Source: an uncultured Gammaproteobacteria bacterium (GTDB lineage Bacteria > Patescibacteriota > Microgenomatia > Levybacterales > UBA12049). Taken from it: DNA of 64,000 nucleotides. The stretch covers positions 23,740 through 87,739 of the forward strand of contig CAZCYO010000003.1 of assembly GCA_964503265.1 (NCBI GenBank). Direction: 5' to 3'. The notes below the pieces were generated by a model that saw nothing but the letters and a program-made list of their open reading frames with translations, was not told the origin of the DNA and searched no databases. Of the stretch, positions 1 to 37,975 are shown piece after piece. A program made the position numbers and the translations under genes. Each line of letters opens with the position of its first letter. Position 1 is the stretch's first letter.

Positions 1-163
1 GAGGAAGTTTTTTTCCTCTCTATATACTGAACTATATTTGGAGTTTTGTGTCAAGGTAGGGTGTCCTTGATTTCGATAATGATAAGAAGTAGAATTGTAC
101 ACCTAATTTAAATTAGAAGAGTGTGAGGGTGTAAGAAAAGTTTGTACGCTTTATATAGATATG

Positions 164-253
164 TGGCGGAGAGGGCGAGATTCGAACTCGCGGTGAGCGT
201 GAACCCACAGATGTTTTCAAGACAACCGCACTAGACCACTATGCGACCTCTCC
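164..253 (-). tRNA. tRNA-Ser (anticodon UGA), long variable arm, CCA encoded
   Basis: Reverse complement reads GGAGAGGTCGCATAGTGGTCTAGTGCGG..CTTGAAA..GTTCGAATCTCGCCCTCTCCGCCA. Acceptor GGAGAGG/CCTCTCC pairs, anticodon loop CUUGAAA, T-loop GTTCGAATC, about 90 nt. Confidence 0.8.
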
Positions 254-414
254 ATGATTATTTTTTAAATCTAAATTCAGATCGTCCTGGTGAGGGCGAC
301 CTCTCCATATTGGCATATAGCGCTTGGCTAATAGCGAATAGTTGGAGTATTATAACAAATTTTTCTATGGTATGTTGCCTTGACTGACACTTCTTCCTCA
401 AGTACACTAATAGT

Positions 415-1083
415 ATGGCTGCCCCAGGTGAACATGATATAACATATCTTCCAAAAGTTGCTCTTGATCTTCCTCGTCCTGAACTCATGTTTCCAGAACC
501 TGAAGAAGAAATTCCAGCGCACGCATCATCGCTTAATCAGCATACACAGCGAGATGAAGAACATGAATATCAGAATCAATCTTCAAATGACGTAAAGACA
601 TTACTCTCATGGCATGCTCCCGGTCGGCCATTTCAGAGAAAAGGGAAAGAGTATTACGTGAATATTCTGCTTATCATGCTGCTTCTTCAGGTAGTGCTTT
701 TCCTCTTTCATGAATATTTGGCGATGTTCGTCGTGCTTTCATTTGTATTTGTCGCATTTGCTCTCGCTACTGTTCCACCGAAGGACTTTTTTTACCGAAT
801 CTCAACTGAAGGGATTATGATTGAAGACCATTTCTTTCTCTGGCAGGAGTTATATGATTTTTACTTTCGAAGGCTTCCAAATGGAGAAGACATACTACTC
901 GTTCGAACGAAAGCATATATCCCAGGGGAGTTAACGATAGTACTCGGACAACTCCATAAAGAACAGGTGAGACAGATACTTATCCCATATCTACCATTTA
1001 GAGAATACGTCAAACCCACCTTTGTCGAAAAATCAGGAGACTGGTTATCCCACAATTTTCCACTTGAGAAAACGAAACAATAG
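415..1083 (+). CDS. hypothetical membrane protein (acidic N-terminus, two TM helices)
   Basis: 222-aa ORF. Hydrophobic stretch ILLIMLLLQVVLFLF..FVVLSFVFVAFALA. No recognisable catalytic motif. Confidence 0.4.
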   Translation: MAAPGEHDITYLPKVALDLPRPELMFPEPEEEIPAHASSLNQHTQRDEEHEYQNQSSNDVKTLLSWHAPGRPFQRKGKEYYVNILLIMLLLQVVLFLFHEYLAMFVVLSFVFVAFALATVPPKDFFYRISTEGIMIEDHFFLWQELYDFYFRRLPNGEDILLVRTKAYIPGELTIVLGQLHKEQVRQILIPYLPFREYVKPTFVEKSGDWLSHNFPLEKTKQ

Positions 1084-1143
1084 TCCTCGATAGGGTTCAT
1101 TTGCTTCAAAACTCAGAATCAGTTAAAATTACAAGCGTAATAT

Positions 1144-1217
1144 GCTCTCGTAGCTCAGCTGGATAGAGCGCAACTTTGCGGAAGTTGAGGCCGTTGGTCC
1201 GAATCCAATCGAGAGCA
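1144..1217 (+). tRNA. tRNA-Arg (anticodon GCG by hand folding)
   Basis: GCTCTCG-TA-GCTC-AGCTGGATA-GAGC-G-CAACT-TTGCGGA-AGTTG-AGGCC-GTTGG-TCCGAAT-CCAAT-CGAGAGC-A. All four stems pair. Anticodon loop TTGCGGA. Confidence 0.7.
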
Positions 1218-1304
1218 CACTGTCAAACGCGGTCTCGCGTGAAGCTATATTTGTAAGTATATCGGAGGTGGGACGATCTGAGACTAGATTTAAGAAATAA
1301 TCAG

Positions 1305-1393
1305 GGAGGGATCGCATAGTGGTCTAGTGCGGCGGTTTCGAAAACCGCTGTCTCGAGTAATCGGGACCGGGAGTTCAAATCTCCCTCCCTCCG
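1305..1393 (+). tRNA. tRNA-Ser (anticodon CGA)
   Basis: GGAGGGATCGCATAGTGGTCTAGTGCG-GCGGT-TTCGAAA-ACCGC-long variable arm-GGGAG-TTCAAAT-CTCCC-TCCCTCC-G. Acceptor and T arm pair. Long extra arm as in class II tRNAs. Confidence 0.8.
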
Positions 1394-1424
1394 CAGTATT
1401 TAATCTCTTATGAAGTGAAAATTG

Positions 1425-3563
1425 TTAGTGTAGATCGAATGTTGATCCAAATGCTCCGGCAGCTCCCGTCGCTCCCATTGCTCCAGCTCCGATTGCAGCA
1501 GCTCCGGCTCCTGACGCGACAGCCAATCCGATTGGTGCTGCAACTACCATTCCTAATGCCGCAAGAATTGCTAAGATCCATTTCGCTTTTGGCGAATCTG
1601 GAACAATACCTTGTTCACGAAGTGCATTCATAACTTCAGATGATGAACCAGATTGTGCGGAAGCAAAAATTTTACTTAGATTCTCAACTCCACCAAAATT
1701 GTCATGGAGTTTTTTCCATTCATGTTCTTTAAGCGCAAGCTTTCCCATTGCTATTTCAGCTCCGAATACTCCAACAGTTCTATCTGCAGAGCCTCGTGCC
1801 ATAAAGAAGTCTGTCATTAATTTCTTTGTATAGTCTTTCCCAAATTTATCATACGCTGCTGTTAATTGATTTTGTTGTTCTTCAGTTAGTTTATCCATAA
1901 AATCTGCTCCTTCCCAATCTTTGCTATTAGTAGGGAGGATATCAAGGTCTCGAAGAATAAGTTGTTTTACTCCGTCTTCACCATTATAAATAAGATAACT
2001 CATATCGTCTTTCATTTGATCTCTATTTTTCTTTCTATTCTCTCTTCTGGTTGTTCGATCGTAGGTGATCCAATTATTCTTCATTTTATCGGCTAATTTT
2101 TTAGCATCATCTGAACCTTCCTGTTCCATTCTGGCGAGGTCAGCTTCTAAGATATCATCATACTGTTCTTCCATAATCTCGGTAATTGATAATCCCATAA
2201 TTTCTTGCATTTCTTGAATAAGCTTATTTTCCTCTCGAAGACGTGTTTGTCTTGCTTGCTCTTGAGCAGTTCCTGCTTTTGTTCCGTTTGCCGCAATCTC
2301 TCCTTCAGCAGTAGCTATCTTTCCATTACTTTCTGAGATAGCTGCTAGTGATTGTGCCATGCGACTTGTATATTTCCCGTCCACATTGGGAACTGTCATT
2401 GCATTAATTCTATCGGAAAGTGATTTTGCACTGGTAAATCGAGCAGTATCTGCTTGCATTGTTGCATAGTCAGTAAGTGTTGTAGCATGTGCTGCTTCGA
2501 GGTTAGTAATTTCGGCTGTTAAAGCTACTGCTTCGGGGGTGGTTTTATCAGTCATCGCATCAAGCTCAGCTTTTGCCCCTTCGATGTCACCTGAGGCTGT
2601 CATATAATTGTTATACAACTTCACATCAGGATTGCTATTTATAACTACGGTTCTTAGAGTATCAGAGAAGTTTTTAATATCAGCATCAGTCCCTGATGCC
2701 ATATGATCTTTGACCATCTTTTTGAGTTCGTTTTCTTTCTTTTTAATTTCTCCTTTATCAGTAAGAGGAACACCTGCTCCATCAACCATAAAACCAAGTA
2801 GTTTGGCAGATTCGATAACTTGTTTTGTTGACTGGTCAATTCTCGCTTGTTCCTGGTCAATTGTTGCACGTGCTCCTTCTGTGGCTGGATCTTCTTTAAT
2901 TTTAGGTAGTCCGTCTTTTTTCTGTGATACTTCAGAAAGTTTTTGTGAGATTTTTTTAGCCAGATCTGGTTTTGATAGAAGGGTTTGTTCAACGAATGCT
3001 CTTTTACTTTCAGCATCAGGAAACGCATTTAATGTATCACCGAATGTCTCTTGAAAATACGAAGAATTTATAAGTGAATCAAGTGTCGTTTGGCGAAATG
3101 TCGCTAGCGCTTTTCTATCGGGGATACCATGCTTGGTTAAAATATCTGGTATTTTTGCTCCAGGCTCATTTAATTCACTACGAATCTGAGAGTAACTAAG
3201 AAAACCTGTAAGCTCTGTAACAACTTTTCCTGCTTCATCTCGAGCGTCTTTAAACTCACCTCGAGGATTTTTTTCTCCATTTCCAAAAGCTTGTACGAGT
3301 GCATCTTTATTATCAGGGTCAAATTCAGGTACCTTTTTCCCTCTTTCTAAATTTTTACGAAATATTTCTCTTCCAGAAGCTTGAGGAGCGGTTTCTCGTA
3401 TATCTTTTGCACGACGTTGACCAAAATCTATCCTTCGTGCTTGTTCGGGGTTTGTTGTATCATCAATTTTGTCACGCAAATTAGACTTTACTTCACCCAT
3501 TGAAGAAAGTACTTCTCCTGCTTTATATTCTCGTGGTGCTGCTGATGGTGTTCCGTCTGCCAT
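1425..3563 (-). CDS. large (712 aa) charged coiled-coil protein with C-terminal Gly/Ala-rich (glycine-zipper) hydrophobic tail; unknown function
   Basis: Long ORF rich in K/E/D/Q heptad-like segments. The C-terminal 60 aa are WILAILAALGMVVAAPIGLAVASGAGAAAIGAGAMGATGAAGAFG. No enzymatic motif recognised. Confidence 0.5.
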   Translation of the reverse strand: MADGTPSAAPREYKAGEVLSSMGEVKSNLRDKIDDTTNPEQARRIDFGQRRAKDIRETAPQASGREIFRKNLERGKKVPEFDPDNKDALVQAFGNGEKNPRGEFKDARDEAGKVVTELTGFLSYSQIRSELNEPGAKIPDILTKHGIPDRKALATFRQTTLDSLINSSYFQETFGDTLNAFPDAESKRAFVEQTLLSKPDLAKKISQKLSEVSQKKDGLPKIKEDPATEGARATIDQEQARIDQSTKQVIESAKLLGFMVDGAGVPLTDKGEIKKKENELKKMVKDHMASGTDADIKNFSDTLRTVVINSNPDVKLYNNYMTASGDIEGAKAELDAMTDKTTPEAVALTAEITNLEAAHATTLTDYATMQADTARFTSAKSLSDRINAMTVPNVDGKYTSRMAQSLAAISESNGKIATAEGEIAANGTKAGTAQEQARQTRLREENKLIQEMQEIMGLSITEIMEEQYDDILEADLARMEQEGSDDAKKLADKMKNNWITYDRTTRRENRKKNRDQMKDDMSYLIYNGEDGVKQLILRDLDILPTNSKDWEGADFMDKLTEEQQNQLTAAYDKFGKDYTKKLMTDFFMARGSADRTVGVFGAEIAMGKLALKEHEWKKLHDNFGGVENLSKIFASAQSGSSSEVMNALREQGIVPDSPKAKWILAILAALGMVVAAPIGLAVASGAGAAAIGAGAMGATGAAGAFGSTFDLH

Positions 3564-3564
3564 A

Positions 3565-4239
3565 TTAGTTAGTTATATTAGTTAACTGATCTTGAATAGA
3601 ATCAATTTTATTTTGGTCAGCATCTGTTGTAATGTATTTCATTCCGATAGTGTTATAGATAGGCCAGCGTTCGCCAAGTTCTTTTAGGAAATTGACGAGG
3701 TCGGCTTTCGTTTGGACGGAATCTAAATGATCGAGGACGAATTGGGAAGAAGCTTCTGAATCTTCAACCTCTATCTCTCCTTTATCGAGAGCTTCCATCA
3801 TCGCATCAGCTAAGTCTTTATAGAGACTTTCTCTATCTTCCGAAGGTATCTCTCCTAGAACTGAAGCTGGGGCAGGGGAAGTGGTTGCCTGTTCAGTTGG
3901 AGCTGTCGTCACTGCAGGTTCAGGGGCTGGAGAGGTGGAAACGGGGTCGGAAACAGGAGATGGTTGCATAGGAGATGGTATATCTGTCTGGACTGGAGGA
4001 GCGAATGTGTCAGACACAGCAGGTGTCATCGGGTCTGGGATAGCTGGGATGACACTTGGAGCAGGTGGGGTGACTGGATCAGGAGACGTCTCAGGGATCG
4101 TCGGCATAGGAGATGGAACAGTTGGAGTAGGAGTAGACCATGATGATGTCGGAACGACAGGAGTGTCTGTCTGAGGTACAGGTGGAGTAGGTGTGATTGA
4201 CGAATCAACAGAAACATCTGGAGCAGCATTAGAATCCAT
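3565..4239 (-). CDS. Pro/Thr/Ser-rich low-complexity protein with small C-terminal globular domain; unknown function
   Basis: 224-aa ORF 2 nt upstream of the large coiled-coil gene, so likely co-transcribed. The first ~130 aa are PT(S)-rich linker-like sequence. Confidence 0.45.
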   Translation of the reverse strand: MDSNAAPDVSVDSSITPTPPVPQTDTPVVPTSSWSTPTPTVPSPMPTIPETSPDPVTPPAPSVIPAIPDPMTPAVSDTFAPPVQTDIPSPMQPSPVSDPVSTSPAPEPAVTTAPTEQATTSPAPASVLGEIPSEDRESLYKDLADAMMEALDKGEIEVEDSEASSQFVLDHLDSVQTKADLVNFLKELGERWPIYNTIGMKYITTDADQNKIDSIQDQLTNITN

Positions 4240-4287
4240 ATATTAACAGTATGGGAAATCTGAAATGTTGTCAATACACGAGTCTTT

Positions 4288-4698
4288 TTAGCTTTGTTTT
4301 GCGACAGAAATCGCGCCTTCGACATTACCTGCTTTAATATGTGTCGCCATGGCTGATATTTTCCGTTGTCGTTCTTCTTCTTCTATCGGTCCGGCAAATT
4401 TTACGTACAGCGCTTTCGCCTCATCGTATCTAACACTCAGTGAATTAAGTTTTTGTACCAAATCATGTTTGTCCTTGAAGGGAAGGAGGGCAAGAAATTC
4501 TTGGGAAAGTTTTTGGGCTTCTTCAACGGTTAGCTTACTTGATTCTAAATTATCGATGATATGTGCTACCAAGTCTTTCTCAACCTCCTGAGTGAGTGGA
4601 TCTGTGTATGTAGAATCGTCCTGTCCAGACGGTGGCGTTGATGAGTTTTGTGGATCCATAATCGATTCTATCATTGCCAAAAAAGCGAGAAAAGTCAA
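4288..4698 (-). CDS. hypothetical protein (first gene of a 3-gene minus-strand islet)
   Basis: 136-aa ORF co-oriented with the two downstream genes. Start codon uncertain (alternative Met at MIESIMD). Confidence 0.4.
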   Translation of the reverse strand: MTFLAFLAMIESIMDPQNSSTPPSGQDDSTYTDPLTQEVEKDLVAHIIDNLESSKLTVEEAQKLSQEFLALLPFKDKHDLVQKLNSLSVRYDEAKALYVKFAGPIEEEERQRKISAMATHIKAGNVEGAISVAKQS

Positions 4699-4785
4699 GA
4701 AAAAGGAAAGAGGGGAATGGTATAATCGTGAATGGTTATTAGTTATTGGTGATTAGTTATTAGACATTTTTTGTGAAGTGACTGT

Positions 4786-4927
4786 TACCTAATCGCTCAG
4801 GACTAATAAGGTGGGAAGGATTTGCCCTGCTTAGGCAGGACGATCCTACTATCTATAATCAAGAAATTAATCAAGGAAGGATCGCCCTCGACAGGACGAG
4901 TCCTAATTATAATTAAATAATTAATCA
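4786..4927 (+). repeat. two decayed tandem copies of a tRNA-Ser 5'-half-like unit (~55-65 bp) immediately upstream of tRNA-Ser(GGA)
   Basis: GGTGGGAAGGATTTGCCCTGCTTAGGCAGGACGATCC...AATCAAGGAAGGATCGCCCTCGACAGGACGAGTCC...AATCAAGGAAGGATCGC then the true tRNA. The motif AATCAAGGAAGGATCGC occurs twice. A shortened relative, GGTGGGACGATC...AATCAGGGAGGGATCGC, precedes tRNA-Ser(CGA) at 1268-1304. Confidence 0.6.
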
Positions 4928-5014
4928 AGGAAGGATCGCATAGTGGTCTAGTGCGCACGCTTGGAAAGCGTGTGTCGCCGCAAGGTGACCGGGGGTTCGA
5001 ATCCCCCTCCTTCC
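4928..5014 (+). tRNA. tRNA-Ser (anticodon GGA)
   Basis: GGAAGGATCGCATAGTGGTCTAGTGCG-CACGC-TTGGAAA-GCGTG-variable arm-CGGGGG-TTCGAAT-CCCCC-TCCTTCC-G. All arms pair. Confidence 0.8.
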
Positions 5015-5138
5015 GCCGCGTCGGAGCTCAGCTTAACCGTTTCGTCAGCCTGTTGGCTGATTGCACTTTTCAGTTGGTTCCTCCTCTTTAACTTAGCGTA
5101 GCAAAGTTAGAAAGAACAACTAAAACAACAAAAAGACT

Positions 5139-5166
5139 CCATATTTCAGGAGTCTTTTTTATTTGA
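5139..5166. terminator. bidirectional rho-independent terminator (AAAAAGACTCC-loop-GGAGTCTTTTTT)
   Basis: An 8-bp stem AGACTCCT/AGGAGTCT flanked by an A-run on one side and a T-run on the other. It lies between the 3' end of tRNA-Ser(GGA) (+) and the 3' end of the hsp20 gene (-). Confidence 0.7.
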
Positions 5167-5178
5167 AAGCAGTCAGAC

Positions 5179-5583
5179 TTATTTCGTCTTTACTGTGATC
5201 TTCTTGGGTTGTGTCACTGGAGATTTCGTGAAGGTTATTCGCATTACTCCATGGACACTTTCTGCCTCTGGTTCGCGGGTTAGATCTAACTCTCCGGGAA
5301 CTGCAACACGGTATGAGAAAGAACTCGTTGCCTTGCGGTAGAATTTTTTTTCTTTTTCTTCCTCAGCTATTTCACCTTTAATCCAGAGTACGCCTTTATC
5401 AAATGTTATCTCAACATGTTTCGGATCGACTCCGGGAAGCGCTGCTTCAACATATACGTGTTCGTTATCTTCTGAAACAGTAAGCCCTGTCGGTGAGGTG
5501 AAACTCATCGTATCATCCTCATCAAGAAGGGTACGAAACTGTGGAAATGTGAAGAAAGATCGTGGAAGTATATCATTGTTCAT
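5179..5583 (-). CDS. Hsp20/alpha-crystallin family small heat-shock protein
   Basis: 134 aa. Alpha-crystallin domain signature ...YVEAALPGVDPKHVEITFDKGVLWIKGE...SFSYRVAVPGELD...VHGVMRITF. Confidence 0.85.
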   Translation of the reverse strand: MNNDILPRSFFTFPQFRTLLDEDDTMSFTSPTGLTVSEDNEHVYVEAALPGVDPKHVEITFDKGVLWIKGEIAEEEKEKKFYRKATSSFSYRVAVPGELDLTREPEAESVHGVMRITFTKSPVTQPKKITVKTK

Positions 5584-5788
5584 CTATGTATCACCTCCTT
5601 TCCTAGATTAAATATCTACAATTTGTGATGTCACGATGGTAATCGGGACGCCGTTGTAACAATAATTAGCAATACTATACAACGACTGCTAATTTTTGTC
5701 AAGAGGGTGTGTCTTGAGGAGGGAGAATCAATTTCGCTATTATAACAATTGACGGGATACTATTTCTTTACTACTATCTATACAACAT

Positions 5789-6739
5789 ATGTCCGATCAA
5801 TCAGGAAAAGAGGGAGAGCAAGGAGCACATAACTTAGCTAAACAGCCAGATAGTAAGATTCCAGAAGCGTCGCAACCAGGAGAAAAGCAAGTAGATAATC
5901 TTCATGGCAGTCAAGAAGGCGAGAGTACTAATGAAGCAAGTATCTTAGCTCATGCACTTGATCCACTTGAAGTACTCGCATCTCCATTAGAAAGAGAAAA
6001 ATTACTGTATGTACTCTCAACTATTGGTCGTGCACAAGATGCTATAACAGCTGCCTTTCCACAGTTAGGAGGAGATTATCCGTATAAAGCCTTTATGAAG
6101 GTTGATCCAACTCTTAAAAAGCCTCACGCTAGTTTTCTAAATTACAGAGGAGTAAAAGTAATTGTTTTAGAAAGTCCTACAGATTACACATCGGATGGTT
6201 TTGGAGATGAGGTAGTAGCATCACCTTTTTCAGAAGAGACTCAGTATAAAAGGGATATAGTATCTCTTTATGCGATGCTTCACGAAGTGGGAGGACATCT
6301 GACGTATGACCATATCACAAATCCTGATAATCTTCCTACAACTCCAGACTATTACAATACTATTGATGCAGCAGTGAGTGAAGGATTTGCTGTTATGACA
6401 GAATTAGCAGTAGTAGATAAAATTATAAATGGAACAGTTCCAGGATTTACTGCAGAAGAAAGAGCTGCTTTGTCTCAACTACGAGCAGAAAGACTTAACA
6501 GTTCTTATCTAACCGGTCTTCATGCAAACGAAAACGCGTATGGAGAAGGGCATACTATCATGCAAAACGTGTATGAGAAAGGTGGTATGGATGGAGCGCT
6601 AGATTTTATAGGACAGTTAGATTCATACAAAACCAGAGGTGTTTCTCGTGGAGTACCTCACTATCGTCAATCACTTATTACTGGAGATTCAGAAGAATTT
6701 CTTGGCTTCTTTCAAAAACCTTCAGATGAAGAAGTATAA
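5789..6739 (+). CDS. hypothetical protein (contains HEVGGH, a non-canonical HExxxH motif)
   Basis: 316-aa ORF with an acidic, low-complexity N-terminus and no TM segment. MLHEVGGHLTYDH resembles a zincin motif but with the wrong spacing. Confidence 0.4.
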   Translation: MSDQSGKEGEQGAHNLAKQPDSKIPEASQPGEKQVDNLHGSQEGESTNEASILAHALDPLEVLASPLEREKLLYVLSTIGRAQDAITAAFPQLGGDYPYKAFMKVDPTLKKPHASFLNYRGVKVIVLESPTDYTSDGFGDEVVASPFSEETQYKRDIVSLYAMLHEVGGHLTYDHITNPDNLPTTPDYYNTIDAAVSEGFAVMTELAVVDKIINGTVPGFTAEERAALSQLRAERLNSSYLTGLHANENAYGEGHTIMQNVYEKGGMDGALDFIGQLDSYKTRGVSRGVPHYRQSLITGDSEEFLGFFQKPSDEEV

Positions 6740-6744
6740 ATACA

Positions 6745-6772
6745 AAGTGGCGGAGGAGACAGGATTTGAACC
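6745..6772 (-). repeat. orphan duplicated 3' fragment of a tRNA-Ser-like gene (T-arm plus acceptor plus CCA), candidate att-site scar
   Basis: Minus strand reads ACAGG-TTCAAAT-CCTGT-CTCCTCC-G-CCA. There is no matching 5' half (GGAGGAG...) in the flanking 100 nt. It closely resembles the 3' end of tRNA-Ser(GCT) ~670 bp away (GCAGG-TCCGAAT-CCTGT-ACCCTCC-G). Confidence 0.55.
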
Positions 6773-6800
6773 TGTGTGAGTCTTGCGACTTGGACGTATG

Positions 6801-7439
6801 TTAATCGAAGAATGATTCACTTTTTTTTAATAATTCTTCATACAATCCAATTAACTTTAACTGTAATTTAAAGTCATAATATCGTAAGCTGCATGTTCCC
6901 AGGTATGTTTTCCTGTGTTTTCCTCCTCTAATTTCTGTAATGGTAGGTTTGATAAATCTCTCGGGGGGAATAGAGAGAAGGTTACTCCAGTACTCTCTAA
7001 TCTCAGAAAAATTATGTATATTGTGAATCTGCAAATGAACTCGTAACTTTGTTTCATTAATGGAAAATGCATTTCTTAACAATGTAAGAAATAACCTAAT
7101 AAGATTGGGATCACTATTCGTAAAAATCATTTTATTGCTTGCCGGATATTTAGTTCCTTCGCACCAGTAGAGTATTGAAAGATAAATTTTTGCTTGTGTA
7201 GAAGATAAAGTAGTAATTGAATCTAGAGAAGATATTTCAGATTGTTTTATTTCAATGCGTTTTCTATCATTACTTAATAATAATGTGTCTTGTCTTGAGG
7301 TTATTGTTTCACCTTTACACCAATTGCGGATAGTAGTTGCTGGAATGCCAGTTATTTTTTGTAATTCGGCAAAAGAATATCCCTTCGCTTTTCGTAGGTC
7401 AACTGCTGAGATAATATCTGCATCTTGGTACTTCCTCAT
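6801..7439 (-). CDS. HTH-domain protein, possible LAGLIDADG-type homing endonuclease (weak call)
   Basis: N-terminal HTH GYSFAELQKITGIPATTIRNWCKG. Downstream YLSILYWCEGTKYP...LIRLFLTLLRNAF fits the LAGLIDADG helix pattern (hydrophobic-x-G-hydrophobic-hydrophobic-D/W-x-E-G). I trimmed the start to MRKYQ so the gene begins immediately after tRNA-Ser(GCT). It sits between the tRNA and its duplicated 3' fragment. Confidence 0.35.
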   Translation of the reverse strand: MRKYQDADIISAVDLRKAKGYSFAELQKITGIPATTIRNWCKGETITSRQDTLLLSNDRKRIEIKQSEISSLDSITTLSSTQAKIYLSILYWCEGTKYPASNKMIFTNSDPNLIRLFLTLLRNAFSINETKLRVHLQIHNIHNFSEIREYWSNLLSIPPERFIKPTITEIRGGKHRKTYLGTCSLRYYDFKLQLKLIGLYEELLKKSESFFD

Positions 7440-7442
7440 AAG

Positions 7443-7527
7443 CGGAGGGTACAGGATTCGGACCTGCGGACAGTTATTCACCGTCACGGCTTAGCAAGCC
7501 GCTCCATTACCACTCTGGCAACCCTCC
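7443..7527 (-). tRNA. tRNA-Ser (anticodon GCU)
   Basis: Reverse complement GGAGGGT-TG-CCAGAGTGGTAATGG...GCGGC-TTGCTAA-GCCGT-long variable arm-GCAGG-TCCGAAT-CCTGT-ACCCTCC-G. Acceptor and anticodon stems pair. The D-arm fold is less clear. Confidence 0.65.
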
Positions 7528-7587
7528 GTAAACCTATTATATTTTAAACCCTCCTGTCGAGCAATAAGGATTTGCTACACTATCTCT

Positions 7588-8280
7588 ATGCATCTTTTCG
7601 ATTTGCTGTTTCCGAAAAAGTGTGTGAGTTGTGGTTCGTTTGGGTCATATATTTGTAGCAATTGCTTTGCCAAAATATCGTTTGAAGTGGAGTCTATTTG
7701 TGTAGAGTGTAACAGAGCTGCAATCGATGGGATAACCCATCCTGGATGTAAAAAACGATATTCACTTAACGGCGTATTATCGAGCGTGAAATATAATGGT
7801 GTGATGAAAAAAGCACTGTATAGATTTAAATACGCACCATATATAAAACAAATCGAGACAGTGTTAATTGAACTTTTTTATGAAGGACTCATCCAAAAAG
7901 AATTGTTTCATACGTTGCGCCTGAAGAACGCTGTATTTGTCCCTATTCCGCTTCATCCAGAAAAACTAAAAAGTCGAGGATATAACCAGGCAGAAATTTT
8001 AGCAAATGGTATCGCAAAAGAGATGGGAATGGAGAGTAAAAACGTATTATATCGACAGAAGAAAACGCAGTCGTCATTTACGTTGACCCGCGAACAAAGG
8101 CAGAAGAATATCGATGAGGCATTTGTTATAAAAACAGATGTGGTGCTGACTCCCGATATGACGATACTGTTAGTTGATGATATCGTGACGACAGGTGCGA
8201 CGCTTAGTGAAGCGGCAAAACTACTTAAAAAGAATGGCGTAAAAAGTGTGTGGGGAGTGACGCTGGCTCATGGGAAGTAA
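7588..8280 (+). CDS. comFC: ComF family protein (ComFC-type double zinc ribbon plus phosphoribosyltransferase domain)
   Basis: N-terminal CVSCGS...CSNC...CVECN..GCKK zinc ribbons. C-terminal PRTase signature ILLVDDIVTTGATLSEA. Confidence 0.8.
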   Translation: MHLFDLLFPKKCVSCGSFGSYICSNCFAKISFEVESICVECNRAAIDGITHPGCKKRYSLNGVLSSVKYNGVMKKALYRFKYAPYIKQIETVLIELFYEGLIQKELFHTLRLKNAVFVPIPLHPEKLKSRGYNQAEILANGIAKEMGMESKNVLYRQKKTQSSFTLTREQRQKNIDEAFVIKTDVVLTPDMTILLVDDIVTTGATLSEAAKLLKKNGVKSVWGVTLAHGK

Positions 8281-9726
8281 TTATTTCCCCTGGCATTCTG
8301 TTCTCACAACAGGAATAGTATCTTTGTGTATGGCTTTGGCTAGCTTGCATGTTTTTATGATATTTATTCGTACATCGGTATTTGATGGATTTAATTTTTT
8401 GGCTTTTTGGAACTCTGTGAGTGCTTTTTCTGGCTCAAAATATACGAAGTGAATAAGACCTAATTGATTATGTTTTTCTGCACTTTCGGGAAGAAGATGA
8501 AGCTCTGTCCAGAGGGTAGGAATGTAGTTTTTCCAACTCATAAGTGCTTTAGGTGTTATAAAGGCGTAGTAGCCAAGTAAGCAAACTATACAAGATAGTC
8601 CGAGTACCTGGAAGTACCGGGCAATATATCTTCGGGGAGTACTCTTTACTAGGTGGGAAAACACTGTAGAGATCGTCAGGCTTGCTCCAAAAGATGCGAT
8701 AACTCCGTATCTTCCCCATAGCGGTTGGTTTTGGAATGCAATGCCCACAAGTGGCATGAGGCTTAGGAAAAACCAGATAATTCCAAATCCGATAAATGAT
8801 CGCCTGCGATATAGCCATACGCCAATCACAAAAAACAACAGAATAATTAGACTGTAGACAATCATATCTGGCTGAAATGGCGAAAGAGTAGGGTTTTGTG
8901 ATGTGGCAAGGGTTAGCTTTTTTTGAATAGCTTGAGCTGTGGGTTCTGAGGGGGGAAGGGGGAAAAAAGACGTCGTAATATATGATCCAGCGCCTTCAAT
9001 AATGATTGCGAACTTCTCTAAGATATGACTAAAAAAATCTCCACGATTACTCATATGCACAATTCCTTCGCGAACGATTAAATAGAAAAATGGGATAGAA
9101 ATAATAGAAGCGCCAACTCGTTTCGATATTTTTTCACTATGAAAATGAATATAGATGAAAAAAAGAAGAGGAAGACACAGTGTTATTTCGTACGTAAAGT
9201 ATGCAAGGGAAGAAAAAAAAAGTGTAAGAGAGAGAAATACTTGTGTCTTTTTTTCAAGTAATAGTTGAAAACAAAAAAATGATATAAATGCGAAAAGAAC
9301 ACCCAGTGTGTCAAAGCTAGCAGTGAGATTGGCGACATTATCGACATGCAGAGGCAGAAGTCCGTATATGAGTGCAGTCATGGCTGCTAAGAGATACGTA
9401 TCTGTAAGTTTTTTGGTGATGAAATAAACCAGAATAATACACAGAATATAGATGGATAAGGCTTGCATGTGATAAAGAAATAAATTGGTATGGAAGAGTT
9501 GGTAGCTTATAACGTATGCCAGTGCCCGCACCGGACGATACACGCCCTCATGAGTGTATGGCGCGTCACCCATGAGAAGTTGCGGAATATGGTGAACATC
9601 ATGAATCGCGTCCCACGTAAACAGAAAATCAATTTCATCATACAGAAAGGGAGTGTTAAAAAGAGGGAGGAATATAACGATCACAAAAGCACAAATCGCA
9701 ATAAGCGTGAGGATATCTTTCTTCAT
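8281..9726 (-). CDS. GT-C-type membrane glycosyltransferase-like protein (PMT/TMTC-like) with C-terminal TPR
   Basis: 481 aa, polytopic. N-terminal loop with a DE motif (FLYDEIDFLF) typical of family 39/83-like GT-C enzymes. C-terminal TPR-like LTEFQKAKKLNPSNTDVRINI. One of three paralogous GT-C/TPR proteins in the window. Confidence 0.55.
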   Translation of the reverse strand: MKKDILTLIAICAFVIVIFLPLFNTPFLYDEIDFLFTWDAIHDVHHIPQLLMGDAPYTHEGVYRPVRALAYVISYQLFHTNLFLYHMQALSIYILCIILVYFITKKLTDTYLLAAMTALIYGLLPLHVDNVANLTASFDTLGVLFAFISFFCFQLLLEKKTQVFLSLTLFFSSLAYFTYEITLCLPLLFFIYIHFHSEKISKRVGASIISIPFFYLIVREGIVHMSNRGDFFSHILEKFAIIIEGAGSYITTSFFPLPPSEPTAQAIQKKLTLATSQNPTLSPFQPDMIVYSLIILLFFVIGVWLYRRRSFIGFGIIWFFLSLMPLVGIAFQNQPLWGRYGVIASFGASLTISTVFSHLVKSTPRRYIARYFQVLGLSCIVCLLGYYAFITPKALMSWKNYIPTLWTELHLLPESAEKHNQLGLIHFVYFEPEKALTEFQKAKKLNPSNTDVRINIIKTCKLAKAIHKDTIPVVRTECQGK

Positions 9727-9785
9727 TCTACTATATTACTAGGAAAATGATTGTGGTGAGAAGGGAGACATACTTCGTCATAAAA

Positions 9786-9813
9786 AAGCCGCCGGGGTTA
9801 GCCGGCGGCGGGG
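9786..9813 (-). terminator. GC-rich rho-independent terminator for the minus-strand GC-rich cassette
   Basis: Plus strand AAAAAAGCCGCCGG-GGTTAG-CCGGCGGC. On the minus strand an 8-bp GC stem is followed by TTTTTT. Confidence 0.7.
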
Positions 9814-9845
9814 TAGACACATGTGAGGCTGTGTCTCGTGCCTTT

Positions 9846-10169
9846 TTACGGTTGTGAAGGTGGTGGTTGGACCCATGAGACTCGTACGATTTCGTCGAGT
9901 GGGAACTCGCTCGTGTACGAGACGAAGGGAGACAACCGACCTTCTAGAGACGAGATGACGAGTAATCCTGTTTCTGCTTCAATGACTTTTCCGACGTGGA
10001 TCACGTCGTCTTCGAGATTGAAGTAGAGAGCGATCGCTCCTGGAGCTGGTGTTTCCAGTTCTTCAAGTTCGCCACGTAAGAATAACCCCATGACGTGGTT
10101 ATAGTAGTATGTGGATCCGAGAGCGTAGGAAGCAGCGTCTTTATCTGCTGATGCAGATCCGTCAGTCAT
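9846..10169 (-). CDS. hypothetical protein (GC-rich cassette A, gene 3)
   Basis: 107-aa ORF. Local GC is clearly higher than the ~40% background. Confidence 0.4.
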   Translation of the reverse strand: MTDGSASADKDAASYALGSTYYYNHVMGLFLRGELEELETPAPGAIALYFNLEDDVIHVGKVIEAETGLLVISSLEGRLSPFVSYTSEFPLDEIVRVSWVQPPPSQP

Positions 10170-10294
10170 CTTGAACCTCCTGGTGTTATGAGCGCTTCGG
10201 GAACGGGATATCGCGAAGATCAGCGACCTCGCCCTTTAGGGCAGACTGCGTGATGCGGCGAACCACACTGTAGTGGTAGCCCTTCATCTGCTCT

Positions 10295-10549
10295 TCAACG
10301 ACTCCCACGCATTGTCAGGCGATACTGCCTGGAGGGCGCAGGGTTTGAAGACGTGGGGTAGTCATTGAATGGGAGTTCTTGTTGCCATGACTGCAGGTAG
10401 CCTTTCCGAACCAAACTCTCAAGCTCACTAGTCGCAAAGCGGCCGCGAATCTTCCAGTTAATGGTTCCTTCGGTGAAAGTGCCGCTATTGAAAGCAGCGT
10501 CTTGACATGCTCGGAGGACTTCTTGTTCGCCTGGTGTAAGATCATCCAT
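10295..10549 (-). CDS. hypothetical small protein with LuxR/sigma-70-region-4-like N-terminal helix-turn-helix (cassette A, gene 2)
   Basis: 84 aa. LTPGEQEVLRACQDAA resembles the LTxRExEVL HTH start of LuxR/FixJ and sigma region 4. GC-rich. Confidence 0.35.
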   Translation of the reverse strand: MDDLTPGEQEVLRACQDAAFNSGTFTEGTINWKIRGRFATSELESLVRKGYLQSWQQELPFNDYPTSSNPAPSRQYRLTMRGSR

Positions 10550-10565
10550 CGACGCCTCCTTCGTA

Positions 10566-10910
10566 CTATTGTTCGAGCAGCTTCACGGTGGAGTCTGCCC
10601 GAGCCATGATTTCTGCGTGGAAGGCTTTCGCCTCCTGCGCCGCATCGTGTTCGAGAAGAGCATCCAGCCAGAGGGGGACTGTAGCGTAGAGAATCTCACT
10701 CACTGAGAAGGGCATACGAAGTGTGGTTACATGATCGTCAATTGATTGCATCATGTGCAAGACGAAGCCGCCCACAATTCGTCCCTGTCCGGCGAGCTCT
10801 GCGAAGCGTGGGTAGAGATCATCTACCAGTTTCGTAGCAGAGATGACGCTGGTTAAGCGCCTGATCATCTCCTCCCGATCCGGAAGGATTACACGAATGT
10901 CACTTGGCAT
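10566..10910 (-). CDS. hypothetical protein (cassette A, gene 1)
   Basis: I chose the start at MPSDIRV because a GAAGGAGA Shine-Dalgarno lies 7 nt upstream. GC-rich. Confidence 0.4.
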   Translation of the reverse strand: MPSDIRVILPDREEMIRRLTSVISATKLVDDLYPRFAELAGQGRIVGGFVLHMMQSIDDHVTTLRMPFSVSEILYATVPLWLDALLEHDAAQEAKAFHAEIMARADSTVKLLEQ

Positions 10911-10957
10911 AGGGTATTTCTCCTTCTCTGATTCAGGCTTATGCGTATCCAAATGGA

Positions 10958-11046
10958 TAGCATCTTAGGTAAGAATGAATTCCTGCCCAAAATGCTATCC
11001 ACAAAGGATTTAATTATTTCCGCAAACTGTAAAAGTGCAAAAAAAA
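10958..11046 (-). promoter_or_regulatory. upstream control module of cassette A: 10-bp inverted repeat TGGATAGCAT...ATGCTATCCA plus conserved TTTGCGGAAAT and TTTTGCAC-TTTACA motifs
   Basis: Same architecture and near-identical motifs as the region upstream of cassette B (13533-13625). Confidence 0.5.
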
Positions 11047-11154
11047 GATCTATAGTACAACAAATACGCATATGTATTGAAGTACTCTAGTTATAGCGGG
11101 ATTATAGCATTATGAAAGACGCACGGTCAAACTATAGGGCTAAAGATTGCATGT

Positions 11155-11391
11155 TTATATGAAATGTTTATTTCTGAAGGCGAAGCCTGAGTTAGTTTTT
11201 AAGTAATCTTCAAATAAAACTGCTTTTTCTTTGGACTGAAAAGCAGCATAGAAAATTAAAATGAAAGGTCGTAAATTTTTTGTTGAAGCTACAGAACCTT
11301 CTGTATGAGCTTTTATGCGGTTCTTGAGATTAGAAGAATATCCATGATAAAACGTTTTATCTTTAAGTTGGAGTATGTATACATAATACAT
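11155..11391 (-). CDS. GIY-YIG nuclease family small protein
   Basis: 78 aa. MYYVYILQLKDKTFYHGYSSNLKNRIKAH is a canonical GIY-YIG module (YVYIL..YhG.T.NL..R...H). Confidence 0.8.
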   Translation of the reverse strand: MYYVYILQLKDKTFYHGYSSNLKNRIKAHTEGSVASTKNLRPFILIFYAAFQSKEKAVLFEDYLKTNSGFAFRNKHFI

Positions 11392-11399
11392 ATTCTCAG

Positions 11400-11442
11400 T
11401 GTATCAAAATGAAAAATGCCCCACTTCGTCCGCCAGTTGGCG
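11400..11442 (-). terminator. rho-independent terminator downstream of ssrA (nested hairpin plus U-run)
   Basis: Minus strand: GCCCC-UAACGUA-GUCCGCC-AACU-GGCGGAC-GAAGU-GGGGC-AUUUUUCAUUUU. Confidence 0.6.
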
Positions 11443-11540
11443 GACTACGTTAGGGGCACCCTTCGCTACTATTTTCAAGCCATTTTTTTAGGAGTGTGGC
11501 CTGCCACTCCGTAGCTCATCCCGTTAGGGTATGAGCGAAG

Positions 11541-11970
11541 GGTGGAGATGTCCGGGAGCGATCCGGAGTCCGAAATATATTTTTAAAAACATCTACAAGC
11601 GTAGTCACAATTTATAGTGTCGTCTGAAACGTGTTCGAGTGACGGAATTTTTCAGACCTAGATCTCTTAATACCACGAAAGTCGAAATCAGTCTCTCTCG
11701 CTGTTTTCCTAACTGTTTTTAGGTCGTTACTTCCACGTTAGGGAGGAAGTAGGACTGTTCAAAGAGCTCGGGTCTTAAGCAGCAAGTGCGAAAGATTGAG
11801 GTGCGAATGCACCGTCAAAAGCGGATTGAACTCCGTCAGCTGCCTTGAGGGCGAATTGACGGACGCTGCGCATTGAGTCAGCATTTATTTTTTGATAATG
11901 TTTTACGACAACTTATCAATGTCGGCTTGCAGTTTTTAAAGAACGTAAATCGTCGAATCAAATCATCCCC
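11541..11970 (-). ncRNA. ssrA: tmRNA (SsrA), ~430 nt
   Basis: The 5' end, GGGGATGATTTGATTCGACGATTTACG, is near-identical to the canonical tmRNA 5' end GGGGCUGAUUCUGGAUUCGACGGGAUUUGCG. The 3' end reads GGAC-TCCGG-ATCGCTC-CCGGA-CATCTCC-A-CC, and the acceptor GGGGATG/CATCTCC includes the G3:U70 alanine identity pair. An internal reading frame ends ...GCA CTT GCT GCT TAA (…FALAA*), the typical tag terminus. The gene lies immediately downstream of smpB. Confidence 0.8.
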
Positions 11971-12146
11971 AAGCAAAAATCAACTATGATTGTTATTTGC
12001 GAACATTGATTTTTCAAATTCGAATATCGAAATCCTAAACTCGAAACTCCACTTCGTTCAAGAACTTCGCGGAGCAGGCTTTTTTGCTTGCCACTCCGTA
12101 GCTTTAGCGAAGGGTGGTTTCGTATTTCGTGCTTTGGTATTCGGAT

Positions 12147-37901: not shown

Positions 37902-37975
37902 GGGTGTGTAGCTCAGTGGTAGAGCGCGACTCTTATAAAGTCGATGTCCTTGGTCCGATCCCAAGCACACCCACC
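37902..37975 (+). tRNA. tRNA-Ile (anticodon UAU by hand folding)
   Basis: GGGTGTG-TA-GCTC-AGTGGTA-GAGC-G-CGACT-CTTATAA-AGTCG-ATGTC-CTTGG-TCCGATC-CCAAG-CACACCC-A-CC. All stems are Watson-Crick. Positions 34-36 read TAT. Confidence 0.65.

Follow-up and report, generated by a model that had tools for sequence, protein, structure and literature searches.

Genetic organization of the tRNA-Ser(GCT) locus

The window, by which we mean the whole stretch of 64,000 nucleotides analysed, carries, as the earlier note on this DNA had proposed, an intact tRNA-Ser(GCT) gene on the minus strand at 7443-7527 (read from 7527 to 7443). The gene is called by ARAGORN, and it matches the Rfam tRNA model RF00005 with 51.6 bits (E=7e-9). 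It shows the acceptor strands GGAGGGT/ACCCTCC, a long variable arm and a T loop TCCGAAT, and does not encode the CCA end. The tRNA gene is followed on the same strand by an ORF at 6801-7439 (7439 to 6801), present in the ORF list and backed by homologues, whose 212-residue product shows a helix-turn-helix (HTH) and a single LAGLIDADG-like domain. Its ATG at 7439 lies 3 nt past the discriminator base of the tRNA, which agrees with the earlier placement of the gene right after the tRNA, and its stop codon is TAA (6803-6801). The length of 228 amino acids that had been given for the protein was corrected to 212, as the longer version relies on a GTG start codon located within the tRNA gene. The third feature is an orphan 3' part of a class II tRNA, also on the minus strand at 6748-6790 (6790 to 6748), which was recognized by its matches to tRNA-Ser genes of two related loci (L137 and L006) and is called the stump below. 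Between the tRNA-Ser(GCT) gene and the stump the ORF list contains only the 212-aa gene, as claimed before, and no second copy of its family was found in the 64-kb window.

Upstream of the tRNA, a possible sigma-70-type promoter of the tRNA-ORF unit was read from the sequence at 7536-7564 (minus strand). It would consist of a -35 hexamer TTGCTC (7564-7559), a 17-nt spacer and a -10 hexamer TATAAT (7541-7536) placed 8 nt before tRNA position 1, and the closest relative, L083, has kept the same arrangement (TTGTCC-17-TATAAT). The candidate is absent from the list of a consensus scan because its -35 hexamer matches at only three of six positions; the promoter and terminator scan of the sequence gave results no better than those of shuffled sequence. 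Candidate promoter, tRNA-Ser(GCT), ORF and second tRNA-Ser follow one another here in the layout specific to the clade.

Domains and predicted fold of the 212-aa protein

The N-terminal HTH that had been suggested for the protein is a three-helix DNA-binding domain encoded at 7317-7424 (minus strand; about residues 6-41, with W40 invariant). It matches Pfam HTH_3 with E=1e-4, just under the curated cut-off, and other members of the family match HTH families with E-values down to 9e-7. The C-terminal domain is encoded at 6804-7208 (minus strand; about residues 78-212). It includes the YLSILYWCEGT helix, previously described as LAGLIDADG-like, and this description is strengthened by the relatives: the YWCEG helix is invariant across 46 of them, with Y91, C93, E94 and G95 identical in all 46 aligned sequences. 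The YWCEG motif itself lies at 7155-7169 (minus strand; residues 91-95), with E94 at the C-terminal end of the motif helix. Six tandem two-domain proteins contain the motif twice and both copies are invariant. Furthermore, the longer signature YWCEG.K/NSD is invariant across the very divergent family, including both halves of the tandem forms.

An AF2 model of the protein was obtained with a pLDDT of 90.8. According to this model, the C-terminal domain is a divergent LAGLIDADG fold with an alpha-beta-beta-alpha-beta-beta-alpha core, in which helix H80-94 ends at E94. Alignment and model together place E94, followed by glycine, at the predicted position of the catalytic acid of LAGLIDADG enzymes. 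An hhalign comparison puts YWCEG on the second motif of I-DmoI, LYVAEGDK, without reaching significance (E=0.21); the I-DmoI sequence used was checked against 1b24. Foldseek found no significant match of the model in PDB, and sequence and profile searches of PDB sequences retrieved HTH proteins only.

The Pfam search proposed in the earlier note thus recovered HTH_3, while LAGLIDADG_1, _2 and _3 gave no match above the curated threshold. The best match among them is LAGLIDADG_3, which scores E=0.11 against the entire protein and, when the C-terminal domain is searched by itself, reaches E=0.034 (14.8 bits vs a cut-off of 22.5). Weak LAGLIDADG matches appeared in two of six divergent family members, and LAGLIDADG families are absent from the 25 Pfam families most often matched by 46 members at E<=0.01. 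NCBIfam has no family for the protein, and neither Pfam nor NCBIfam gave a recombinase match.

Like LAGLIDADG enzymes such as I-DmoI and I-Tsp061I, which have two domains, or I-CreI, I-CeuI and I-CvuI, which are homodimers, members of the family end the motif helix with an acidic residue and a glycine, and both sets include single-domain and tandem two-domain forms. Members with one such domain probably act as homodimers. The family differs from these enzymes in its motif, [LI]YWCEG, where bulky Y and W replace small residues, in a sequence similarity below Pfam thresholds and in the extra N-terminal HTH; unlike the enzymes compared, its genes lie inside neither an intron nor an intein. An LAGLIDADG fold joined to an HTH is also found in WhiA (DUF199), a bacterial transcription factor derived from LAGLIDADG proteins, with a likeness at the level of the fold only. 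WhiA has two degenerate LAGLIDADG domains, is not known to keep the catalytic acids of LAGLIDADG enzymes and carries its HTH at the C-terminus, whereas in the 212-aa protein the HTH comes first and is followed by one domain, the usual number in the family, with an invariant Glu.

Distribution of the family and association with tRNA genes

We found 116 homologues of the 212-aa protein, and a profile of the family retrieved 6116 clusters (at 50% identity) at E<=1e-3. The closest named genomes belong to Levyibacteriota and unclassified Patescibacteria. Single-domain forms are hosted by Patescibacteria and two-domain forms by high-GC bacteria. Each genome has one copy, and no member was found in viral contigs. 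Full-text literature searches returned no published description of the family. Annotation pipelines label its genes "hypothetical" and in some cases let the ORF reach into the adjoining tRNA.

At least 88 of 93 full-length family genes abut a tRNA gene of the same strand on one or both sides, and three further ones fall just outside the scoring window because the ORF extends further into the tRNA. In most of 80 genome loci the ORF stops between about -40 and +68 nt from the 5' end of a same-strand tRNA, and a TAG belonging to the tRNA often serves as the stop codon. The partner tRNAs in these 80 loci are Ser-GCT and Trp-CCA, with Ala-GGC in one locus, while the two-domain relatives adjoin tRNA-Gln(TTG) and lie upstream of genes encoding NTP-transferase and ribose-phosphate pyrophosphokinase domains.

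This tight joining of ORF and same-strand tRNA, with overlap in many loci, could suit a protein that acts on RNA. Some LAGLIDADG proteins are RNA maturases, and a maturase-like protein might bind or chaperone the precursor of the adjoining tRNA. We consider such a role quite improbable: at its N-terminus the protein has a classical DNA-binding HTH, the partner tRNAs showed neither an intron nor any unusual structure and vary from clade to clade, and most genomes with the same tRNA do not have the gene.

Filled and empty sites in related genomes

The comparison of tRNA-Ser(GCT) loci that the earlier note had called for yielded syntenic sites with and without the gene. The same tRNA-Ser(GCT) body occurs in many related genomes, with or without the ORF. 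Among 76 metagenome loci with an identical tRNA-Ser(GCT) anticodon arm, the gene lies just after the tRNA in nine and just before it in eight, and it is absent in 46 assessable ones; about three quarters of the genomes with the same tRNA lack a family gene. The spacers of GCT-ACT tRNA-Ser tandems measure 9 to 184 nt when empty vs 633 nt when filled, and the filled spacer consists of the ORF only, with the ATG directly after the tRNA end ...CCTCCGC and the TAA 3 nt before the next tRNA. The empty locus L150 and the filled loci L003, L102 and L108 have the order GCT-(gene)-ACT...TGA-ORF-Arg in common, and the flanking protein shared by empty and filled loci is 59-65% identical. Presence and absence are therefore polymorphic at homologous sites, as is typical of homing-endonuclease genes. 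Furthermore, the side of the tRNA that bears the gene differs between close relatives (L110 vs L013 and L014), and truncated family copies were found in L044, L058, L096 and L118/L119.

The explanation towards which we lean is that the 212-aa gene belongs to an undescribed family of free-standing homing-endonuclease-like genes located in tRNA leaders and spacers, whose products would cut DNA and promote homing. The earlier note had mentioned a free-standing homing endonuclease tied to the tRNA gene as one of two options, and this option receives broad, indirect support from the predicted LAGLIDADG fold, the invariant acidic residue, the patchy presence and the family-wide link to tRNA genes.

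The same data bear on a second reading, in which the protein would be a domesticated DNA-binding protein that no longer cuts, an analogue of WhiA regulating transcription of the tRNA locus, and the patchiness would stem from frequent loss of a host gene that cells can do without. In a neighbor-joining tree, built on proteins only, the position classes track clades, which also fits vertical descent with repeated loss, and the empty sites could be clean deletions instead of targets that were never invaded. A dN/dS of 0.09 against L083 (0.114/1.23) indicates strong purifying selection; a host gene would be just as likely to show this and to occur once per genome, and the clade-specific positions, the absence from the viral contigs and the combination of LAGLIDADG fold and HTH, as in WhiA, suit a regulator too. 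We nevertheless regard this role as unlikely. The acidic residue of the motif helix and the YWCEG.K/NSD signature, residues that WhiA is not known to retain, have been kept throughout a divergent family and in both tandem halves, and HTH order and domain number are unlike those of WhiA, whose pattern of two degenerate domains, C-terminal HTH and missing catalytic acids the 212-aa protein does not show. A partner tRNA that changes with the clade (Ser, Trp, Ala or Gln) and a gene that flips sides of one tRNA between close relatives would be odd for a dedicated regulator. Furthermore, WhiA is a conserved housekeeping regulator, whereas the family gene is tied to tRNA genes and missing from about three quarters of the genomes with the same tRNA.

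Origin of the tRNA-Ser stump

The 43 nt of the stump comprise the variable arm, the T arm, the 3' strand of the acceptor, G73 and CCA. They are identical at 42 of 43 bases to nt 48-90 of the tRNA-Ser(CGA) of L137 (E=4e-16 in 1.15 Mb) and at 36 of 38 bases to the tRNA-Ser(GCT) of L006, vs only 21 of 25 bases for the neighboring tRNA-Ser(GCT) (E=0.013 within the locus). Judged from these matches, the stump is the 3' part of a tRNA-Ser far beyond chance, and its likeness to the neighboring tRNA is only the ordinary similarity of isoacceptors. A Ser-type fragment had been reported here as 28 nt at 6745-6772, with its CCA end at 6745; the fragment is real, but its extent is 43 nt with the variable arm included, and the CCA ends at 6748. 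That it lacks a 5' half was confirmed: neither ARAGORN nor Rfam detects the stump as a tRNA or finds a 5' half for it, the Rfam tRNA model gives it no score, and the 64 kb of the window contain no 5' half that would match it.

The acceptor 3' strands, ACCCTCC in tRNA-Ser(GCT) and CTCCTCC in the stump, differ, which shows that they derive from different tRNA-Ser bodies. In relatives, the position of the stump is taken by a complete second tRNA-Ser (ACT or TGA); therefore the stump is a 5'-truncated tRNA gene. Our best reading of these alignments is a tRNA pseudogene and no att site: a redundant second tRNA-Ser would have decayed with the loss of its first 45 nt or so. The caveat in the earlier note that the fragment might be part of a second genuine tRNA was right as to a second tRNA gene, but this gene is truncated, and neither misfolded nor intron-bearing. 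A split or intron-containing tRNA was rejected, as ARAGORN and Rfam show no second tRNA or intron and the window has no 5' half. Rfam found no intron family at E<=1 in positions 1-12000, nor around the stump, and the upstream tRNA is intact, not split into two exons by a ribozyme as with a group I intron. An alignment with MAFFT suggested the C-terminal tail of the ORF, KKSESFFD, as a degenerate 5' half of the stump tRNA; this was rejected because length and position of the tail are normal in comparison with the relatives.

The earlier note had taken the fragment as a duplicate of the adjacent tRNA 3' end, and had offered as one possibility that the pair is attL and attR of a decayed island. 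Such a miniature element or island remnant would have entered the 3' end of tRNA-Ser(GCT), rebuilt the tRNA with a 3' end that it brought along and left the displaced one as attR at 6745-6772. The geometry fits superficially, since here, as in tRNA-targeting integrative elements, a tRNA gene is followed by foreign-looking DNA, with one gene, and by a tRNA 3' fragment in the same orientation, which agrees with the tRNA 3' end at the 21 of 25 bases given above. These elements have a near-identical direct repeat of the 3' end of their target tRNA and carry an integrase or recombinase gene; the segment between tRNA-Ser(GCT) and the stump shows neither. The acceptor strand CTCCTCC of the stump would mispair with the tRNA 5' strand GGAGGGT, and the variable arm included in the stump bears no relation to the one in tRNA-Ser(GCT). 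Furthermore, this tRNA is complete and nearly unchanged in genomes without the ORF (five base differences in L153), and is therefore no chimera rebuilt by an element. With the full second tRNA-Ser of the relatives at the stump position, and no flanking tRNA repeats at any other family locus, we hold integration to be highly improbable, and neither claim was retained. Before a tRNA-like 3' end beside a tRNA is taken for an att site, related genomes should be compared.

It is surprising that dead sequence such as the stump should be nearly identical to a functional tRNA from a rather distant relative, unless the truncation is recent. Besides simple decay, the stump may have been kept for a function, as a tRNA-like 3' end or processing signal of the ORF mRNA or as part of the recognition site of the putative endonuclease; this proposal concerns the stump only and is compatible with the homing-endonuclease explanation. 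It would account for the 42/43 match to L137, whose family protein belongs to another sub-clade, and for the T stem, T loop, variable-arm stem and CCA, which are all intact. Compared with shuffled controls, the region folds more favorably (z = -2.55), with a new closing helix AAAGUG/CACUUU in place of the lost acceptor stem, and a T-arm motif of tRNA genes is recognized by SegB of phage T4 (PMC2330249). The z-score is modest, however, and the stump receives no score from the Rfam tRNA model. It is absent from the closest relative L083 (82% amino acid identity), where another gene begins 4 nt past the stop codon, and no fragment was found at L001, L006, L007 and L081, other loci where the gene follows a tRNA and has no tRNA behind it. 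We therefore find a retained function rather doubtful.

Proposed mechanism and relation to known systems

Under the homing-endonuclease explanation, the 212-aa gene would be a free-standing, intron-less homing-endonuclease gene, of a family that resides in tRNA 5' leaders or in spacers separating two tRNA genes. In genomes without the gene, its product would cleave a site linked to a tRNA, and repair from a gene-bearing copy would copy the gene into the site. We propose that leader and spacer are a harmless niche because tRNA processing takes them off the precursor RNA.

The nearest parallel is T4 SegB, a free-standing homing endonuclease encoded inside a tRNA gene cluster, whose recognition site includes the conserved tRNA T-arm motif, so that tRNA genes are both its home and its target (PMC2330249). 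Both genes are free-standing, intron-less and placed between tRNA genes, and in both cases related genomes have homologous tRNA regions without the gene. SegB is a phage GIY-YIG enzyme with proven cleavage and homing, whereas the family combines an LAGLIDADG fold with an HTH, is encoded in cellular genomes and would cut and home by analogy. Unlike SegB, its ORF fills the whole tRNA leader or spacer and often overlaps the tRNA 5' end.

Homing-endonuclease genes in Patescibacteria are described, in the passages of PMC13011429 considered here, from group I introns of rRNA and tRNA genes, with LAGLIDADG enzymes in rRNA introns and HNH endonucleases in tRNA-Asn introns. The matching passages of that article contain no free-standing tRNA-flanking ORFs, and the terms tRNASer and tRNATrp are absent from its text. 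These intron endonucleases share with the family the phylum and the strategy of a selfish gene hidden in RNA that is removed from a stable-RNA precursor. The family differs in having no ribozyme, and its partner tRNAs are intact and uninterrupted.

If the endonuclease is active, the family would be a large and very divergent LAGLIDADG branch, marked by YWCEG as a motif new to these enzymes and by an additional HTH, and its natural targets would be conserved tRNA loci, of interest for mobile DNA and for new meganuclease scaffolds. It would be a bacterial chromosomal counterpart of the SegB system and could explain variable gene content and tRNA stumps near tRNA-Ser and tRNA-Trp in the tiny genomes of Patescibacteria. 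It would also offer a clean case of an ORF bounded by tRNAs, akin to the tRNA punctuation of mitochondria.

More tentatively, the some 6,000 clusters (50% identity) may represent an unnoticed, phylum-spanning family of LAGLIDADG homing endonucleases, with a catalytic domain without a Pfam model, specialized in the 5' leaders of tRNA genes and the spacers between them, with Ser, Trp and Ala as partner tRNAs in Patescibacteria and Gln in high-GC bacteria. Its genes would be harmless through end processing by RNase P and RNase Z, not through splicing. tRNA end processing would then be a third route to phenotypic silence, alongside introns and inteins, and the activity of the family would drive tRNA-gene turnover, with duplicates, side flips and truncated copies like the stump in the window.

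Expression of the ORF

The 212-aa ORF lacks the space for separate signals and would probably be transcribed from the tRNA promoter; 3'-end processing of the tRNA would then probably free it as a nearly leaderless mRNA. No Shine-Dalgarno motif precedes any of 92 family genes. This was rejected as a special feature, because the window's own genes rarely have one (2 of 50) and its absence is uninformative. Some family loci keep a -10-like box between ORF and tRNA, so co-transcription is not assured. Among family genes without an upstream tRNA, 19 of 68 show a -10-like hexamer whose end lies exactly 7 nt upstream of the ATG, vs 8% of 900 control ORFs.

Organization of the tRNA-Ser locus

The intact tRNA-Ser(GCT) gene, identified by ARAGORN and Rfam (7527 to 7443), a 212-aa ORF and a 43-nt tRNA-Ser 3' fragment (6790 to 6748) are all located on the minus strand. 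According to the ORF list and the sequence, the ORF starts at an ATG (7439) separated by 3 nt from the discriminator base of the tRNA, and stops at a TAA (6803-6801); the fragment, recognized by reading of the sequence, begins ten bases past this stop codon. The features described in an earlier note are present, but their coordinates, the fragment length and the protein size needed correcting: the GTG start of its 228-aa protein falls within the tRNA gene, and its 28-nt fragment is longer, with the 5' half absent as described. Sequence reading also located a candidate promoter upstream of the tRNA (TTGCTC, a 17-nt spacer and TATAAT, 8 nt from tRNA position 1). In the closest relative, locus L083 (82% amino acid identity), the tRNA, the ORF and the candidate promoter layout are all kept, and the upstream sequence is that of the window, where it is the start of the ComF-family gene in reverse complement.

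Pfam detects only an N-terminal HTH in the protein; LAGLIDADG_3 reaches no better than E=0.034-0.11, and searches of NCBIfam and PDB sequences returned nothing for the C-terminal domain. The motif helix is closed by E94 and G95, both invariant, and purifying selection acts strongly on the ORF (dN 0.114, dS 1.23 in relation to L083).

Origin of the tRNA-Ser fragment

The fragment (AGTCGCAAGACTCACACAGGTTCAAATCCTGTCTCCTCCGCCA) comprises the variable arm, a perfect T arm, the 3' strand of the acceptor, G73 and CCA. Neither ARAGORN nor Rfam scored it, and no complementary 5' half was found in the whole 64-kb window. It had been taken for a duplicate of the neighboring tRNA 3' end; however, it shares only 21 of 25 bases with the adjacent tRNA-Ser(GCT) (E=0.013) and its acceptor strand CTCCTCC is unsuited to the 5' strand of that tRNA, GGAGGGT, whereas 42 of 43 bases match nt 48-90 of a tRNA-Ser(CGA) in the related locus L137 (E=4e-16 in 1.15 Mb). 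Furthermore, it matches the tRNA-Ser(GCT) of L006 in 36 of 38 bases. Judged by these matches, the fragment is the true 3' portion of a tRNA-Ser, derived from a tRNA body other than that of its neighbor. Since four related loci (L002, L003, L008 and L019) hold a complete tRNA-Ser(ACT) at the exact position of the stump, the simplest reading is that the second tRNA-Ser of the window lost its first ~45 nt, and the best-supported explanation of the stump is a tRNA-ORF-tRNA unit whose second tRNA has decayed. The stump is near-identical to a functional tRNA in a relative from a different sub-clade, yet absent from L083, where another gene begins 4 nt past the ORF stop codon. The stump would be either a recent truncation or a remnant with a retained role, in which case it might act as a tRNA-like 3' end; its region folds with z = -2.55, with a replacement closing helix.

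Distribution of the gene family

The window protein has 116 homologues of ~205-235 aa, all unnamed and all from Patescibacteria MAGs and metagenomes. A scan using one genome per species yielded 80 loci, in nearly all of which the ORF end lies ~-40 to +68 nt from the 5' end of a same-strand tRNA; the ORFs often run into the tRNA, whose own TAG is then the stop codon. By scoring, 88 of 93 full-length family genes abut a tRNA, and three more missed the scoring window because the ORF extends deeper into the tRNA. The positions fall into three classes. Distant members lie upstream of tRNA-Trp(CCA), with one upstream of tRNA-Ala(GGC), and closer members upstream of tRNA-Ser(GCT). In the clade of the window, the gene is found 0-7 nt after tRNA-Ser(GCT) and is followed directly by a second tRNA-Ser (ACT or TGA) or by nothing. 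Gene callers push family ORFs into the downstream tRNA (the C-terminus of the family protein P0112, L008, L019 and many loci of the Trp clade), and the artificial C-terminal tail, for example ...GGVAQLAEHSSPKRAVVGSSP, is translated tRNA.

Two-domain forms of 441-576 aa occur in high-GC genomes adjoining tRNA-Gln(TTG), and therefore the tRNA association reaches beyond Patescibacteria. In L190 (3001-4599) and L191 (3001-4326), genes whose products have NTP-transferase and ribose-phosphate pyrophosphokinase domains lie downstream of this tRNA; in L192 (1497-3227) and L193 (483-2213), the called ORF passes through an antisense tRNA-Gln.

Metagenome contigs were scanned for the exact anticodon arm of the window's tRNA-Ser(GCT), and the tRNA was found in 76 loci. 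The family gene is directly after it in nine and directly before it in eight, while 46, flanked by 650 nt or more in both directions, show no family gene. Spacers of empty GCT-ACT tandems measure 9, 20, 29, 86 and ~184 nt; in filled tandems, the 633-nt spacer is nothing but the ORF, with CCTCCGC directly before ATG, and TAA followed by three nucleotides and GGAGGAG. The order GCT-(gene)-ACT...TGA-ORF-Arg(GCG) is common to the empty locus L150 and the filled L003, L102 and L108, as is a flanking protein (59-65% identity). Furthermore, the family gene lies on one side of the tRNA in L110 and on the other in its close relatives L013 and L014, and truncated copies are found in L044, L058, L096 and L118/L119. 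The earlier note had seen in the locus the attL/attR geometry of a tRNA-targeting element. At empty sites, the upstream tRNA-Ser(GCT) is present in nearly the same form (L153 differs at five bases), which means that no inserted element rebuilt it into a chimera, and we discarded this model.

Expression of the family genes

The window ORF has no room for a promoter, leader or terminator of its own. In its clade, tRNA 3'-end cleavage would release an ORF mRNA with a 3-nt leader, as expected from general knowledge of tRNA 3' processing. Of 68 family genes that lack a tRNA upstream, 19 show a -10-like hexamer whose end is exactly 7 nt ahead of the ATG, against 8% of 900 ordinary ORFs (L001-L163 and the window), which points to leaderless mRNAs. 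Some loci retain a -10-like box between ORF and tRNA, so the downstream tRNA may not always depend on read-through. Shine-Dalgarno-like motifs are close to background (2 of 50 window ORFs); together with the 8% of ordinary ORFs, this suggests that leaderless translation is widespread in these genomes.

Relation to known systems

The family is best explained as putative free-standing homing-endonuclease-like genes inhabiting tRNA leaders and spacers. The second proposal of the earlier note, a homing endonuclease at a tRNA gene, gains indirect support and extends to a large undescribed family tied to tRNA genes; no account of this family was found in the searchable literature. Functionally, the closest precedent is phage T4 SegB, a GIY-YIG endonuclease whose gene lies within a tRNA cluster, is missing from related phages, and whose recognition includes a tRNA T-arm motif (PMC2330249). 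A recent survey of tRNA introns in Patescibacteria describes HNH endonucleases within introns of tRNA-Asn; neither tRNASer nor tRNATrp is used as a term in its text, and the passages found mention no flanking ORFs (PMC13011429).

Other tRNA and tmRNA genes

The window contains a Ser/Arg tRNA cluster within 7.5 kb (tRNA-Ser TGA, CGA, GGA and GCT, and tRNA-Arg(GCG); 164-253, 1144-1394, 4929-5017 and 7443-7527), recurrent in many related loci with varying order and orientation. Many Microgenomates genomes conserve a tRNA-Ser(ACT), whose wobble base is A, usually directly after tRNA-Ser(GCT) (L002, L003, L004, L005, L008, L011, L019, L029, L031, L038, L089, L102, L104, L108, L112, L124, L137, L147, L150 and L153; none in the window). 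It looks functional, because its variable-arm stem has compensatory changes. In bacteria, A34 is unusual except in tRNA-Arg(ACG), and inosine in the split AGN codon box would misread Arg codons.

The T loop TCCGAAT, with C in place of the near-universal U55, is present in tRNA-Ser(GCT) (7443-7527, minus strand) and tRNA-Arg(GCG) (1144-1217, plus strand), and also in L083 and L001; the remaining Ser tRNAs of the window show TTCGAAT or TTCAAAT. T4 SegB recognizes a T-arm motif, which leaves room for a purely speculative connection with endonuclease immunity. A tRNA-Ile(TAT), an uncommon bacterial means of reading AUA, is found in the window (37902-37975, plus strand) and in L001 (7534-7607). Halves resembling tRNA-Thr lie ~220 nt apart in L063 (3353-3374 and 3601-3636) and L071 (2758-2785 and 3007-3037), and probably belong to tRNA genes with introns, overlooked by ARAGORN and of the type that PMC13011429 describes. 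Finally, the window has a tmRNA gene (11540-11970, minus strand; Rfam 105.8 bits) with a ~70-nt insertion compared with the model; ARAGORN did not call this gene, although it did detect tmRNA in two related loci, L014 and L081.
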